From Candidatus Aenigmatarchaeota archaeon (lineage in GTDB: Archaea; Aenigmatarchaeota; Aenigmatarchaeia; QMZP01), in contig JAVZYR010000011.1 in assembly GCA_038999435.1 (NCBI GenBank), positions 1 through 21,898 on the forward strand: a stretch of DNA of 21,898 nt, read 5' to 3'. Positions 9,588-14,554 of this stretch are shown here, piece by piece (position 1 is the stretch's first letter; every line of letters starts with the position of its first letter). Below the pieces are notes generated by a model. It was not told the origin of the DNA and made no database searches. It worked only from the letters and a program-made list of their open reading frames with translations. The translations under genes and the position numbers were made by a program.

Positions 9588-9895
9588 GGGCCCGTAGCTC
9601 AACTGGATAGAGCATCCGGCTTCGGACCGGAGGGTTGGGGGTTCGAATCACCGCTCTTTAGAGCTACCGCTTCAGGCTGTTGCCCACTTTGGTCGGTCTG
9701 TTAAAGTGGGCTTTGCAAGCTGAGCGGTGGAGCAGAAACCACCTGCAGGGCTCTTTAGAGCTACCGCTTCAGGATAGCCTATTGCCCACTTTGGCCAATC
9801 TGTTAAAGTGGGCATTGCAGGTATAGCGTGGAATAGAATTAGTTCACAAAGGTATCAAAAACTTTTATAAAAAGGAGAAAATCCTCCCGGGCCCA
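9588..9895 (+). tRNA. tRNA-Arg(TCG) with a 234-nt insert/intron in the T-loop (position 58/59); exons 9588-9646 and 9881-9895
   Basis: Joining the exons gives a 74-nt cloverleaf: GGGCCCG/CGGGCCC acceptor, GCTC/GAGC D-stem, TCCGG-CTTCGGA-CCGGA anticodon arm (TCG at 9622-9624), GGGGG-TTCGAAT-CCTCC T-arm, discriminator A. The junction can slide within the shared AATC. No encoded CCA. Confidence 0.9.
9653..9838 (+). repeat. Two diverged ~90-nt structured direct repeats inside the tRNA-Arg T-loop insert
   Basis: GCTCTTTAGAGCTACCGCTTCAGG at 9653 and 9750 (offset 97). Each is followed by TTGCCCACTTTGG-N4-TCTGTTAAAGTGGGC (GCCCACTTT/AAAGTGGGC stem) and a GCG(G)TGGA..AGAA end. Confidence 0.92.
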
Positions 9896-9913
9896 TTTTT
9901 AAATCTTCTTAAA

Positions 9914-10027
9914 GATGGGCAGCGTGCTGGTTTTCCCGCCCGAAGGCAGTACACACCAGTACGTGGAGGAGTTTAACTTCCGTGTTCGAAATGGGAACGG
10001 GTGAACCTCCTCGCTTTGGCCGCCCAA
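9914..10027 (-). rRNA. rrf: 5S rRNA, not linked to 16S/23S in this window
   Basis: Reverse complement reads TTGGGCGGCCAAAGCGAGGAGGTTCACCCGTTCCCATTTCGAACACGGAAGTTAAACTCCTC...GTACTG..GGGAA..CGCTGCCCATC. It has the 5S signature CCC.TTCCCATT.CGAACAC.GAAGTTAA and the closing helix TGGGCGGC/GCTGCCCA. Ends are approximate by a few nt. Confidence 0.95.
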
Positions 10028-10045
10028 TATATGATTGAGTTTTAG

Positions 10046-10075
10046 ATTTATAAAAATTTGCAAAATCTTTAAAAT
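10046..10075. promoter_or_regulatory. Back-to-back TATA-like boxes for 5S rRNA (-) and tRNA-Asp (+)
   Basis: ATTTATAAAAA (10046-10056) lies ~25 nt upstream of the 5S 5' end on the minus strand. CTTTAAAAT (10067-10075) lies ~25-30 nt upstream of the tRNA-Asp start. Confidence 0.55.
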
Positions 10076-10097
10076 AAAAAGTCCATTATTTTTATAT

Positions 10098-10205
10098 GCC
10101 CAGGTGGTGTAGTGGCCTAGCATAAGGGACTGTCAGGGCTTTTTAAAGGATACAGAAAAAGCCTGCAGAGCTCCCTTGACCCGGGTTCAAATCCCGGCCT
10201 GGGCG
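10098..10205 (+). tRNA. tRNA-Asp(GTC) with a 35-nt canonical 37/38 intron (10136-10170)
   Basis: GCCCAGG/CCTGGGC acceptor, AGGGA-CTGTCA^C-TCCCT anticodon arm, CCGGG-TTCAAAT-CCCGG T-arm. BHB: central helix CTGT/GCAG, bulges CA^G and AG^C, inner stem GGCTTTTT/AAAAAGCC. Confidence 0.95.
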
Positions 10206-10235
10206 TGAATTTATTTAATCTTGACAAAATTAATT

Positions 10236-10406
10236 ATGTTTAAAAAGAGAAAGAAGAAAGGGAATGATGCAGAAGGCATAGCATTTGTGGCATTCTTTTT
10301 TGTTGGCATGGCTATTGGTGCGGTTTTTGGAAGATGGGATGTGGGCCCGTTTCTCGGTTTGGCATTAGGATTCCTTGCAATGTTGTTCGTGCTTAAAGGC
10401 AAATAA
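10236..10406 (+). CDS. Small membrane protein (56 aa, two hydrophobic Gly-rich segments)
   Basis: ATG at 10236. Basic N-terminus, then GIAFVAFFFVGMAIGAVFG and VGPFLGLALGFLAMLFVL. Fills the gap between tRNA-Asp and marC. Confidence 0.7.
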   Translation: MFKKRKKKGNDAEGIAFVAFFFVGMAIGAVFGRWDVGPFLGLALGFLAMLFVLKGK

Positions 10407-10408
10407 AA

Positions 10409-10993
10409 TTAATATCCAAACCTTTCTAACAATCCTTCAATACCTCTAAAAATAAATTCAACTGCCATCGCAGCCAATAAAAAGCCTGTTACTCTTGATA
10501 AAATATCTAAAATATCATCGCCAAACAGCCTTTGTAAAAGTTCAGAATAGTGAAGCATGAGCCATGTTATAACTAAAACAAGCATAGAAGCAAGAATAGG
10601 TATGAAATAGCCATAATGCCCTGCTAAAATAACTATCGTCGTCATTGCCCCAGGCCCACATAAAAGGGGTGTGCCTATAACAATCCCTTTCATTTGTTTT
10701 GATGATTTGTTAATCCCGATATTCAGAATTGTTTGTATGCCCATGATAATCAATATCAGACCGCCTGCGATCTGAAATGCAGAGAAGCTTATCTTCATGA
10801 TGTCTAATATAATTACACCTAAAAACAGGAAAAATAAAAGCAGTCCACCCGCAACACTTACAGCGATAAATGCTTCTTTTGCCTTTCTTCTTTGGCTATA
10901 CCCTTTTGTTAACCTCAGAAATATCGGTATACTAAGAAATGGATCTATGACTATAAACATCGTTACAAATGATATGAGAAATTCTGAAAGCAT
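10409..10993 (-). CDS. marC: MarC-family integral membrane protein
   Basis: F.VIDPF..IPIFL.LT, G..IL...ISF.AFQIAGG.IL, PLL.GPGA.TT and R..G.LLAA.AVEFI..G motifs; about six hydrophobic segments. Confidence 0.93.
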   Translation of the reverse strand: MLSEFLISFVTMFIVIDPFLSIPIFLRLTKGYSQRRKAKEAFIAVSVAGGLLLFFLFLGVIILDIMKISFSAFQIAGGLILIIMGIQTILNIGINKSSKQMKGIVIGTPLLCGPGAMTTIVILAGHYGYFIPILASMLVLVITWLMLHYSELLQRLFGDDILDILSRVTGFLLAAMAVEFIFRGIEGLLERFGY

Positions 10994-11092
10994 GTATATT
11001 TTTAGTCATAATAAAATAAAGCCGTGTTGTGGTTATCAAAGCTTTATAAATCTTTGTATCTAATTTTTAATCATATTCATTACTTTTTGGTA

Positions 11093-11104
11093 AAAATTTA
11101 TAAA
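11093..11104 (+). promoter_or_regulatory. TATA-like box upstream of the HD-domain gene
   Basis: AAAATTTATAAA ~25 nt upstream of ATG 11125, compatible with a leaderless transcript. Confidence 0.5.
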
Positions 11105-11124
11105 TCTTTATGTCATTTTTATTT

Positions 11125-11952
11125 ATGGTAACATACCTTGTAGAATCTGGAAAAAGAATTTTGGATGAGATTTTGGCAGGCGGTAATATAAAGGATGATA
11201 TACTAGCAAATACTCCGCTAATAACCTCTATAAAAAATAGCATTGGAGCCAGGGCTGATATTTTAAAAGATTTTGTTGCATACAGCACTGAAGTTGATGC
11301 TATTTCAAAAATGTTAAAAGAGAATGACAGCTCTACTGCAGAGCATTCATTTGGGGTTGCTGAGATATGCGATGGTATGGCTGGATATCTTAATTTAAAC
11401 AGGGCAATTGCAAAAAATTCAGGTTTGTATCATGATTTCGGAAAACTTTTCATACCTGAAGGGATTAAAAATCAGGAGATGAAAACAGGAAAGGACATAG
11501 AGCCATTCGATTTGGAATTTGTTAGATATGGTCATGTTCTCATAGGCGAGGTTCTTGCAGTTCTTGGTGAGGTTGATGAACATCTTAAATATGCAATGGC
11601 ATACCATCATGATAAAAGAAATCATAAAGGCTATCCACATAAGGTATTCGAACTTCCAGATGAGACAAAGGCACTTCAGGTTGCTGATGCTGTTCAATAT
11701 AAGAATATTGTAAAAGTTGCAGATGTCGCACATGCTCTAACAGATAAAAACAGAAAAAATATGCAATGGTATAGAAGGAATGGTGTAGATATACAAAATA
11801 AATATGATGTTTTTGGTTTTTTAATCAAAGGTGTCTATGAAGGAGATTTTGAAGAAAAGTATGTCAATGCCTATCTAAAATTTGCAGGGCTTAAAGAGGA
11901 TGAAATAAAGGAGCTATATAGATTAAAAAGACCTGAAACAAACTATTTTTAA
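11125..11952 (+). CDS. HD-GYP-like metal-dependent phosphohydrolase
   Basis: T.EHS..VA, GLYHDFGK, H..IG..L, YHHDKRNHKGYP (variant of HHExxDGxGYP) and IVKVADV.HALT. Start placed at ATG 11125 (alternative 11110) from TATA spacing. Confidence 0.85.
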   Translation: MVTYLVESGKRILDEILAGGNIKDDILANTPLITSIKNSIGARADILKDFVAYSTEVDAISKMLKENDSSTAEHSFGVAEICDGMAGYLNLNRAIAKNSGLYHDFGKLFIPEGIKNQEMKTGKDIEPFDLEFVRYGHVLIGEVLAVLGEVDEHLKYAMAYHHDKRNHKGYPHKVFELPDETKALQVADAVQYKNIVKVADVAHALTDKNRKNMQWYRRNGVDIQNKYDVFGFLIKGVYEGDFEEKYVNAYLKFAGLKEDEIKELYRLKRPETNYF

Positions 11953-12119
11953 TGCATAGCTGTTAGCTTGCATGGATGGGCCCGTAGCTCAGCCAGGTTT
12001 GGCAAAACCCTGAAATGGTAGAGCACCGGGCTTTTAGCATCGGCTAAAAGCATGTTGAGGTCTGTTAAATCAGACCGATGGCAGAAAAGGTTGCATACCC
12101 GGGGGTCGCGGGTTCGAAT

Positions 12120-12213
12120 GAGCCCTTTCTTTCAAGAAGAAAGCGCTCGCGGAAAGAAGGAGCTAACCGCTTCCGATTTCAGAGCCTTTCTTTCAAGAAG
12201 AAAGCGCTCGCGG
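12120..12213 (+). repeat. Two ~32-nt hairpin direct repeats in the tRNA-Lys T-loop insert
   Basis: GAGC(C)CTTTCTTTCAAGAAGAAAGCGCTCGCGG at 12120-12152 and 12182-12213; each folds GAGC..CTTTCTT/AAGAAAG..GCTC. Confidence 0.92.
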
Positions 12214-12273
12214 GCACGCTTCTCCTGCTCCCAACAGAAGCGTGCGAGTAAGAGGGAGCTTACGCTTCCAGAG

Positions 12274-12402
12274 TGGAAGCGTTGTGGAGCGAAGCGAAAC
12301 AGCTCCCGGATGGCTGGAAACCTTGAGGGTTTCCAGAATGGAAGCGTTGTGGAGCGAAGCGAAACAGCTCCCGGATGGCTGGAAACCTTGAGGGTTTCCA
12401 GA
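12274..12402 (+). repeat. Tandem duplication with a 65-nt period (64 nt identical) in the tRNA-Lys T-loop insert
   Basis: TGGAAGCGTTGTGGAGCGAAGCGAAACAGCTCCCGGATGGCTGGAAACCTTGAGGGTTTCCAGA at 12274-12337 and 12339-12402. Contains hairpins GGAGC/GCTCC and CTGGAAACC/GGTTTCCAG. Confidence 0.95.
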
Positions 12403-12421
12403 GAGAATCCCGCCGGGCCCA

Positions 12422-13592: not shown

Positions 13593-14554
13593 TAAACATA
13601 AAAAAAGGCCTTAAGGAATATGCAGAAAGAGGAAAAATTGCAATAGCAAGTGGGGATAATTACGGACCTGCTATATCAGCTTTGTATGCAATCGGCATAG
13701 AATTGTACGGCTGTTATATTGAAAATGACAAAGAGATATTTAAAAAACTTACAGGAAATGAAACAAAAAATAGAAACTATTCTTCTTCCACAAAGCATGG
13801 AACGGAAAGCAACATACAGCCACCTCGTGCATATTTTGAACCAAACGATGAAGGTCCATTTATTCCTATCATTCCACCTCAAGACTTTCCAAACTATATG
13901 AAATCTAAAAGATTAGAAATTGTTGTTGGTGCTGGTTATGATATTCAGATAAATGAGTGTAGAATAAAAAATCCCCCATTAAATGGCAAGTTTAAGGACC
14001 CAAATGAATGGGATGAGGTAATGGAAAAAGGGCTATTAAAAGCAAAACAAATAGGTGTAAATCTCAATCAGAAGCCTGTAATGTTCCCTTTGCTAGCTTA
14101 TAGAAAGACAGGCGCAGATGAATTAAAAGATTTGAAATGCAAGAAAAAAATAGAAGCGCTTTCAGAATTTCCTCATATTTTTGAGGAATTTTGTAAAGAA
14201 AAGGGCATACCTTTGAGCAATATGGTGAAGGTTTATGGAAGAGCAGAATATCAGCTTGGGTCAGGATTTGCACATATAGGGACTGATATAGTTGAGACTG
14301 GAAACAGTATATTAGCGGATATAGAGAGAATAAGAATCATATATGATAATGGAGAGCCTGTCGTGATTATGTATTCTATGCCATGGCTACTGACAACCTT
14401 AAAAGAATACAATGCCAATAGGGCATTCTTTAATGCACTTTTTAATGAGATGAAAAACGCCCTTAAAAATATTGATGTAAAGAATGAGATTGAAAAATTT
14501 GATAATTTTTTCAAAAAGTTCAAGGAGAAGGAAAAAGAATTGGGTTTAGAGTGA
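13589..14554 (+). CDS. hisG: Divergent ATP phosphoribosyltransferase (HisG)-like protein
   Basis: HisG motifs recognisable in order: KIAIASG (cf. IAlpKG), PQDFPNYM (cf. .DIP.YV), GYD...E, SEFPHI (cf. TKYP.I), VYGRAE (cf. L.GSVE), GFAHIGTDIVETGNSI (cf. GLAD.IVDIVETG.TL, PRPP loop). ATGA overlap with the upstream ORF. Confidence 0.7.
   Translation: MINIKKGLKEYAERGKIAIASGDNYGPAISALYAIGIELYGCYIENDKEIFKKLTGNETKNRNYSSSTKHGTESNIQPPRAYFEPNDEGPFIPIIPPQDFPNYMKSKRLEIVVGAGYDIQINECRIKNPPLNGKFKDPNEWDEVMEKGLLKAKQIGVNLNQKPVMFPLLAYRKTGADELKDLKCKKKIEALSEFPHIFEEFCKEKGIPLSNMVKVYGRAEYQLGSGFAHIGTDIVETGNSILADIERIRIIYDNGEPVVIMYSMPWLLTTLKEYNANRAFFNALFNEMKNALKNIDVKNEIEKFDNFFKKFKEKEKELGLE

Follow-up and report, generated by a model that had tools for sequence, protein, structure and literature searches.

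The stretch of DNA analyzed here (the window; 21,898 nucleotides (nt)) is contig C11 of the genome of a hot-spring Candidatus Aenigmatarchaeota archaeon (G000; GenBank assembly GCA_038999435.1, contig JAVZYR010000011.1), an assembly of 549 kb in 30 contigs that is 86% complete and has a G+C content of about 38%. The region examined contains three transfer RNA (tRNA) genes and one 5S ribosomal RNA (rRNA) gene (Table 1). The tRNA-Arg and tRNA-Lys genes carry long inserts in their T-loops, and a sequence-only reading of the window had proposed that the inserts of these different tRNAs share motifs and represent a family of mobile, protein-less elements targeted to tRNAs. Our interpretation, to which we assign a probability of roughly three in four, is that the inserts are protein-spliced archaeal introns composed of two-hairpin units, that they have recently been copied between RNA genes, and that the units are constrained at the level of the transcript.

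Table 1. RNA genes, introns and repeated units in the examined region of the window (P1 and P2, first and second hairpin of the unit; R1, covariance model of the unit; hBH, relaxed splice junction).
Feature	Position	Strand	Basis
tRNA-Arg(TCG) gene	9588-9895	+	acceptor and T-stem pairing
tRNA-Arg(TCG) exon 1, positions 1-59, ending TTCGAA	9588-9647	+	acceptor/T-stem pairing; ARAGORN calls Arg(tcg) after removal of the insert
tRNA-Arg T-loop (59/60) intron, 234 nt	9648-9881	+	direct repeats D3 and D9; blastn family interval; hBH junction
P2 hairpin AGAGCUACCGCUUC	9660-9673; second copy 9757-9770	+	motif matches; P2 pairing counted
tRNA-Arg exon 2 (T60, 3' strand of T-stem, 3' strand of acceptor, discriminator A)	9882-9895	+	stem pairing
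5S rRNA, without insert	9914-10027	-	Rfam RF00001, 66.7 bits
tRNA-Asp(GTC), anticodon-loop intron only, T-loop TTCAAAT	10098-10205	+	Rfam tRNA, 52.3 bits; ARAGORN
tRNA-Lys(TTT) gene, three introns	11978-12421	+	stem pairing; anticodon read from sequence
tRNA-Lys D-loop intron, about 23 nt, ending GAAA	11993-12015 (boundaries +/-2 nt)	+	read from sequence
tRNA-Lys canonical 37/38 intron, 60 nt, containing GGTCTGTTAAA at 12059	12037-12096	+	read from sequence
tRNA-Lys T-loop (59/60) intron, 289 nt, five hairpin modules	12119-12407	+	blastn family interval; hBH junction
Two-hairpin unit, A type: pyrimidine/purine P1, linker AAAGAAG, P2 GGAGCUAACCGCUUCC	12118-12174	+	R1, 20.3 bits
Two-hairpin unit, B type: P1 CACGCUUC/GAAGCGUG, conserved 14-nt loop, linker GAGUAAGAG, P2 GGAGCUUACGCUUCC	12212-12269	+	R1, 81.7 bits
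Two tandem 65-nt copies of the 3'-terminal 'D' module	12266-12395	+	repeat D1, 98% identity

ARAGORN with default settings found no tRNA gene in the whole window (1-21898) and, with introns allowed, only 10 in the raw genome; the Rfam tRNA match on tRNA-Arg is partial and covers the 5' part only (9594-9654). We located the interrupted genes by searching for paired acceptor and T stems around TTCR, and identified 33 complete GC-rich tRNA genes in the genome as well as two further genes cut by contig ends. In 25 of the 33 complete genes the T-loop carries an insert, each time at the same place between positions 59 and 60; the inserts are 11-306 nt long and total 3,177 nt. Excision of the T-loop inserts alone in silico restored the cloverleaf, as the removal of introns should, and ARAGORN then called 31 of the 33 genes. 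Since standard tRNA finders miss so many of these genes, annotations and completeness estimates for such lineages are misleading, and automatic annotation of this lineage will miss most of its tRNAs.

The junctions are uniform. All 25 consist of the T-stem, a 3-nt bulge and a short helix, that is, the relaxed hBH or bulge-helix-loop (BHL) motif. The bulge is AAT in 22 junctions, TAT in two and CAT in one; the helix between T54-R57 and the penultimate bases of the intron (GAA or GAG) has 3 bp in 17 junctions and 4 bp in eight; and exon 2 starts with T60 in every gene. In some relatives from one family of the order (f2; for example, loci L140 and L145), the 5' strand of P1 can alternatively pair with the 3' end of the intron, which, as read by eye, would form a strict bulge-helix-bulge (BHB).

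The enzymes expected for this class of introns, a broad-specificity splicing endonuclease and a ligase, are both encoded in the genome. An EndA fragment lies at the start of contig C7 (C7:3-527); it comprises the C-terminal 174 residues of the enzyme, which are collinear with residues 219-387 of 4FZ2 (E 4e-55), and over the part seen its sequence places it in the three-unit epsilon2 (ARMAN-2) type, so that the typing of EndA suggested by the sequence-only reading points to an enzyme of broad specificity. An open reading frame (ORF) next to this fragment looks by eye like a family-B DNA polymerase. The RtcB ligase gene is also present (E 1.5e-171). An excerpt of the ARMAN-2 study reports that the epsilon2 EndA cleaved a 59/60 hBH intron in vitro (PMC3239211), and the part seen of a 2018 paper describes the epsilon2 type as known only from the Micrarchaeum/Mancarchaeum lineage (PMC5829648).

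Comparison of the inserts begins with the short words that had been reported as shared, all of which we found again in the window. GAGCTACCGCTTC occurs at 9661 and 9758 and has a variant with two mismatches, GAGCTTACGCTTC, at 12256; these three matches compare with 0.08 expected, and none of 100 shuffled sequences reached three. Together with GAGCTAACCGCTTC (12160), these words are versions of the small hairpin P2 (GAGCT..CGCTTC) with differing loops. AGCGGTGGAGC (9723) and AGCGTTGTGGAGC (12278 and 12343) cover the 3' strand of P1 and continue into the element that comes after it. AGCGTTGTGGAGC is weak in the window alone, since two of 100 shuffles reach two matches at up to two mismatches; it has 13 exact copies genome-wide. 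Exact copies of the three GAGCT..GCTTC variants number 6, 6 and 4 in the genome and those of the two AGCG..GGAGC variants 6 and 13, and all of them lie just downstream of a tRNA T-loop on the same strand. A further proposed link, GGTCTGTTAAA, joins the Arg T-loop insert (9695) to the Lys anticodon intron (12059). The genome contains no third exact copy of this word, of which 0.01 would be expected in the window by chance; the link found no other support, there being no similarity beyond the 11 bases. The sharing may be a coincidence, because the two copies occupy different hairpin contexts.

A blastn search of the genome with all T-loop introns identified 30 intervals (3,874 nt in total), and the inserts of different tRNAs indeed form one sequence family. 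The intervals have several characteristic features: (i) all 30 are co-oriented with the host RNA gene, (ii) 28 are in tRNA genes, one is in the 23S rRNA and one is at a contig end, and (iii) none is in an ORF or in ordinary intergenic DNA. The 14 matches of the covariance model R1 (described below) are all inside these intervals, so that by both the blastn and the covariance-model checks the copies in this genome are confined to stable-RNA genes. Within tRNAs the family occupies not only T-loops but also the D-loops of C3:7277-7422 and C18:605-741 and the anticodon region of C4:11633-11979. The A-type unit is shared by the T-loops and these two D-loops, and the Arg-type module by the C4:11633-11979 anticodon region; related introns at different tRNA positions are one feature of families of transposed tRNA introns. 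The number of units varies from one to about five per intron, with truncated and inverted pieces among them.

The suggestion that the inserts target the sequence TTCGAAT was not supported. Positions 54-59 of the hosts are TTCGAA in 13 of 25 genes, TTCAAA in nine and another sequence in three, and the tRNA at C3:7277-7422 has TTCGAAT and no T-loop insert. The neighboring tRNA-Asp, cited in favor of the targeting, is as described, with TTCAAAT and no T-loop insert; its only intron is in the anticodon loop. Nor are the units exclusive to tRNAs, since they also occur in the 23S rRNA, and relatives have copies in intergenic DNA and in the 3' trailers of tRNAs.

Chance similarity or mis-assembly of a repeat-rich metagenome bin is an alternative explanation of the family that we consider hardly credible. 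The regions are certainly hard to assemble: in four DNA runs from one hot-spring study, contigs break inside the introns, where the summed depth is 650-925 as against about 10 in unique DNA. A few joints with short sides in these contigs swap modules and may derive from another locus or another organism; none of the contigs of the four runs showed an allele that lacks the intron. Against this explanation stand 25 loci that each have matching 5' and 3' exons rebuilding a canonical tRNA, motif counts far above those in shuffled sequences, and homologous units in 28 other genomes.

The insert in the 5' region of the 23S rRNA gene (C8:368-527) is about 200 nt long and consists of A-type units and a long 'E' hairpin. 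It lies within the loop of the conserved GGGGAACUGAAAC/AUCUUAGUACCC hairpin and is flanked by a GAAAC direct repeat. Its modeled fold combines a bulge of 3 nt with a short helix and a long, inner one, and may plausibly serve as a relaxed motif. A long hairpin module (CACAAAGCCAGAC...GUCUGACUUUGUG), present in this insert and in the introns of C2:34031-34282, C8:7009-7442 and C18:180-470, contains CUGA-AUGAUGU-CUGA, which resembles the box D'/C'/D arrangement of C/D RNAs or a kink-turn. That reading was set aside; the module has no upstream C box and no match to a small nucleolar RNA family of Rfam.

Alignment of copies from this genome and its relatives defined a unit of about 55 nt that comprises, in order, hairpin P1, which is free in sequence and always paired, a purine-rich linker (GAGCAAGAG or AAAGAAG), and hairpin P2, which is conserved in sequence (GGAGC-UAAC-GCU(U)CC, with a bulged U). 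Derived modules of the unit that are specific to the studied genome, such as 'D' and 'Arg-type', are present as well. In the window, the tRNA-Arg T-loop intron (fold z-score -4.49) consists of two sub-repeats of about 100 nt of the Arg-type module (9648-9840), in which P2 is placed within the loop of P1, followed by an AT-rich tail ending in GAGAAAA. The tRNA-Lys T-loop intron (fold z-score -5.63) combines A-type and B-type units with the D module, each copy of which includes an inverted P2-like hairpin and a CUGGAAACC/GGGUUUCCAG hairpin; the inverted P2-like hairpin has 13 copies in the genome. The A-type unit of this intron was matched by R1 with an E value of 4.5e-4 in one search and 0.0022 in another. 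Within it (window positions 12119-12174), the purine strand of P1 (AAGAAAG) mirrors the linker that comes next (GAAAGAA), a symmetry characteristic of fold-back purine triplexes. In relatives the linker is a direct repeat and not a mirror repeat, and a triple helix was not adopted as a general feature, because those units lack the symmetry.

The covariance model R1 was built from nine copies with P1 alone as its structure, and covariation was counted on 48 R1 matches, that is, 46 distinct rows. In these rows 95.2% of the cells pair, as compared with 42-52% when the partners are slid. Both-sided changes occur in 10 of the 14 pairs: eight of nine in P1 and two of five in P2, where C-G changes to U-A in five rows and G-C to U-A in two. 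The pairing counts for P2 were not fitted, since P2 is absent from the structure of the model. The covariation score is 0.492, against 0.145 for shuffled alignments, and was reached by none of 500 shuffles, so that the covariation of the stems asked for by the sequence-only reading is present in both P1 and P2. The P1 and P2 helices both contain G-U pairs, which are strand-specific and thus indicate a constraint on the transcript and not on the DNA. A compensatory change from C-G to U-A in P1 was also observed between orthologous T-loop introns of a Leu-type tRNA in two f2 genera (L140 and L145). Thus, covariation that includes G-U pairs, together with the invariant sequence of P2, shows that the transcribed unit is under RNA-level constraint.

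In one alternative explanation the unit would be a functional small RNA or a protein-binding module released by EndA or RNase Z, acting in trans or as a stable, possibly circular RNA, or in cis in the folding or quality control of precursors. The sequence of P2 is conserved beyond the need for pairing, P1 is maintained by compensatory changes in two families, and the unit is retained in orthologous introns across genera (L140 and L145). Its location also fits, as it is always in a part that is processed away: three positions of tRNAs, an intron of rRNA and, in relatives, the sequence directly 3' of the discriminator. Structured RNAs freed by tRNA splicing are known, among them a box C/D RNA carried by the tRNA-Trp intron of archaea and the tRNA intronic circular RNAs of animals, with possible circularization by RtcB. 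Unlike these, the inserts match no box C/D or other Rfam family: with Rfam 15, only 5S rRNA and tRNA matches were obtained in the window, with nothing over the inserts even at E <=10, and nothing was found over the unit loci of relatives. The distribution also speaks against a general function, since the unit is patchy among close relatives: R1 detected no copy in 62 of the order's 91 genomes, among them the same-genus genome and near-complete ones, and the copy number varies from 0 to more than 10 within one family. The variable number of units per intron, with truncated and inverted pieces among them, is a further argument of the same kind. On balance we regard a dedicated function as unlikely and retain it, mainly because no selfish-DNA model explains the invariant P2.

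Several lines of evidence indicate that the introns spread recently. An intron of 117 nt is 100% identical in C3:4089-4318 and C29:5355-5578, although the host exons are only 58.5% identical. The 20 introns of at least 30 nt include two families whose members, eight in all, are 80% or more identical and reside in different tRNA genes, with exon identities of 45-74%. Similar introns thus reside in tRNA genes of different type, as in known families of transposed introns, and most of the remaining introns share modules as a mosaic. Where the identical copies meet their exons, the T-stems are different and so is position 57, which implies that the intron alone was copied, to the nucleotide.

A genome of the same genus, G001 (71% complete), provides a state with few or short introns. 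It has 20 full-length Rfam tRNA matches, and the T-loops are uninterrupted in eight orthologs of genes interrupted in G000 (Ala GGC, Thr CGT, Arg CCT, Cys, Met, Thr TGT, Gln TTG and Arg TCT). In two other genes G001 has introns of 10 and 12 nt, as compared with 178 and 109 nt in G000 (Pro CGG, located at C2:34031-34282 in G000, and Glu CTC, respectively). No R1 match and no BLAST match to the Lys intron were found in G001. The absence from G001 of at least eight introns of G000 points to recent spread. In this lineage, recent copying between unrelated RNA genes has involved whole introns as well as individual units, and the introns are not old passengers.

One conceivable route for this spread is movement at the level of RNA, in which an excised intron would be re-inserted into BHB-like sites by reversal of the EndA and RtcB reactions and then returned to DNA. 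This would explain the nucleotide-exact boundaries in unrelated exons, including the identical 117-nt introns with their different T-stems and position 57, as well as the strict co-orientation and the restriction of the targets to structured loops of stable RNAs. We nevertheless consider it very unlikely: no reverse transcriptase was found in the genome, relatives have intergenic copies, and selection for splice-competence alone would account for both the orientation and the exact boundaries.

The unit is restricted to a part of the phylum. R1 matches were found in 29 of 91 genomes of the order, namely, in 16 of 46 from family f1, 12 of 23 from family f2 and none of 21 from the other four families. 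In a sample of the phylum, they occur in 4 of 13 genomes of f1 and 9 of 12 of f2, and in none of 125 genomes from 28 other families. A scan of genome contigs with degenerate 18-19-nt words gave mostly chance bacterial matches among the matches listed; the full unit was present at six loci or more, in records titled Aenigmatarchaeota or uncultured archaeon. A single match on a viral contig of IMG/VR lacks P1, lies in AT-rich DNA and was dismissed as chance.

We read by eye the context of 28 loci in relatives. Eight copies of the unit directly follow GGTTCRA in T-loops, four are in introns of the anticodon region, one is in a D-loop, three are one base past the tRNA discriminator, in the 3' trailer, and 11 are outside recognizable RNA genes; one locus is a coding false positive. 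In one relative (L003 and L146; G003:C17, about 8.2-11.2 kb) we observed a tandem array of a repeat of about 70 nt that contains P2 (..GGAGCTACCGCTTCC..); a masked run of N covers part of the array, a B-type unit closes it, and no recognizable tRNA adjoins it.

These observations bear on the explanation that the unit is the remnant of a DNA transposon, resembling miniature inverted-repeat transposable elements (MITEs) or repetitive extragenic palindromes (REPs), whose transposase is encoded in the missing 14% of the genome, in a virus or plasmid or in a symbiosis partner, with introns being the only tolerated sites. Bacterial REPs, the mosaic elements (BIMEs) and hairpins (REPINs) composed of them, and MITEs are short, GC-rich, hairpin-forming and multi-copy, occur as mosaics and expand in lineage-specific bursts, and the unit resembles them in all these respects. 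Its copy number differs strongly between close relatives, some copies in relatives (G072) lie between ORFs next to short repeats, the insertions are bordered by short direct repeats that could be target-site duplications ((G)AAT at T-loops, GAAAC at the 23S rRNA), and the genome is incomplete. The repeats at T-loops, however, require no target-site duplication, because the palindromic TTCGAA must pair with the 3' end of the intron. Unlike REPs and MITEs, the copies in the studied genome are found only in stable-RNA genes and are all co-oriented with the host transcript rather than dispersed in both orientations, and their strand-specific G-U pairs point to selection on RNA. The possible scatter of copies through ordinary intergenic DNA, named beforehand as the outcome that would speak for a generic repeat, thus has a divided answer: none of the 30 intervals of this genome is intergenic, while relatives such as G072 have some copies there.

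The window had been described as devoid of integrases, transposases, homing endonucleases and reverse transcriptases. Pfam searches with five families in the 86%-complete genome, in which homing endonucleases were not searched for, found no Y1_Tnp, TnpB-type or DDE_Tnp_1 gene (PF01797, PF07282 and PF01609, respectively) and no reverse transcriptase, and thus no transposase of the Y1 type that accompanies REPs (RAYT); the one exception is a tyrosine recombinase, present in a single copy on another contig (C23). With the lone IMG/VR match lacking P1, we consider a transposon remnant a doubtful explanation of the family as a whole. As for the nature of the unit, the data from G000 and its relatives together identify it as a small dispersed repeat of this lineage that survives in G000 only in the removable parts of stable RNAs.

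The interpretation of the inserts as spliced, recently copied introns has to be weighed against the following points. First, the copies in relatives that are outside RNA genes, including those of G072 that lie between ORFs and adjoin other short repeats, mean that the unit is not intrinsically an intron. Second, the 5' splice site in the studied genome is in an open loop rather than a closed bulge, and the N-terminal unit and the specificity loop of EndA are unseen, because the gene is cut by the contig end; that the introns are spliced, where exactly they are cut and what becomes of them are all inferred from sequence. Third, given the incompleteness of G001, its intron-free state holds only for the orthologs seen, and the difference may reflect gain in G000 or loss in G001. 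Fourth, a selfish model at the level of DNA leaves the near-invariant P2 across two families unexplained. Finally, the copy at C16:13795-13963 is at a contig end, with no recognizable exon after it.

Contig C16 has units at both ends (13795-13963 and 1-247), each finishing in Arg-type units. One of them is the 5' part of a tRNA, with the intron running off the contig. At the other, the units finish with ..GCTGAAAT; AT-rich DNA and a convergent ORF come next, and a 3' exon is lacking. This end could be an orphan copy or one piece of a split gene, or the assembly could be broken there.

In our interpretation the introns consist of one to several units of about 55 nt and lie at the 59/60 position of tRNA T-loops and, in the studied genome, also in D-loops, the anticodon region and the 23S rRNA. 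For their removal we propose the following course of events: (i) the whole interrupted gene would be transcribed, (ii) an EndA of the epsilon2 type, whose gene is present along with the motif, would cut the relaxed bulge-helix-loop, and (iii) RtcB, also encoded, would ligate the exons and probably circularize the intron. The copying of introns and units most likely occurs in DNA, by short-homology recombination or template switching, and presumably only copies that are co-oriented, splice-competent and located in removable parts of stable RNAs survive. The number of units may change by recombination between the short GCTTCC/GGAAGCG repeats. The mechanism of spread is the weakest part of this account.

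The closest known case is ARMAN-2 (Candidatus Micrarchaeum acidiphilum; Fujishima et al. 2011, PMC3239211; 4FZ2), which, in the portion of that work seen, shares the 59/60 position, the relaxed junction and, over the part seen here, the EndA architecture. Excerpts of the same paper describe few affected tRNAs and no repeat content, whereas here 25 of 33 genes are interrupted by introns of up to 306 nt that contain a repeated conserved unit; the host is an Aenigmatarchaeote, as opposed to the Micrarchaeum/Mancarchaeum lineage to which the epsilon2 EndA is assigned in part of PMC5829648. Movement of introns among tRNA genes was described in Thermoproteales (Fujishima et al. 2010, as summarized in a section of PMC4033280), and an excerpt of a 2026 Asgard preprint uses those families as a positive control. 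As far as these sources go, the likeness is that similar or identical introns occur in different isotypes and positions of one genome, which implies copying between genes. Unlike the Thermoproteales introns as described there, those analyzed here belong to another phylum with another EndA type, grow by tandem addition of units and are built from a defined covarying two-hairpin unit, copies of which are found in an rRNA intron and, among relatives, in tRNA trailers and intergenic DNA as well.

According to these partial sources, 59/60 introns cut by an epsilon2 EndA (ARMAN-2) and introns shared among tRNAs (Thermoproteales) are thus already known. In the open full text of PubMed Central and bioRxiv (main texts only), we did not find T-loop introns of Aenigmatarchaeota built from hairpin repeats, interruption on the scale of 25 of 33 genes with introns of up to 306 nt, the covarying unit, its presence in an rRNA intron and trailers, or an epsilon2 EndA in an Aenigmatarchaeote. 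These findings bear on how archaeal tRNA introns reach new genes and positions. The family is an unusually clean case in that it combines a recognizable covarying cargo, identical introns in unrelated tRNAs, copies in rRNA and trailers, and an empty or short state within the same genus, and these features together make the route of intron spread testable. An epsilon2 EndA beyond the Micrarchaeum lineage also adds to the picture of co-evolution between EndA and introns. A more far-reaching and, in our estimate, improbable idea is that the unit represents a new class of RNA elements exploiting archaeal splicing and end-processing, either as an RNA-level mobile element of BHB-like loops or as released, probably circular RNAs or ribonucleoproteins with a protein-binding P2. 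If this is true, it would be through the unit that tRNA and rRNA genes of DPANN archaea acquire new introns.

Two further observations concern stable-RNA genes in this genome and its order. The 16S rRNA match of the studied genome (C8:1156-2756) is 1,601 nt long, as compared with 1,478 positions of the model, and the gene may carry an insert of its own; no unit of the family was found in this region by blastn. The number of Rfam tRNA matches at E <=0.001 is 47 in G002, 29 in G024, 15 in G000, 14 in G025, 11 in G072 and 1 in G036, so that the degree of tRNA disruption varies widely across the order. In G036, which is 90% complete, the single match genome-wide is weak, and nearly all of its tRNA genes are probably interrupted, a state more extreme than that of G000.

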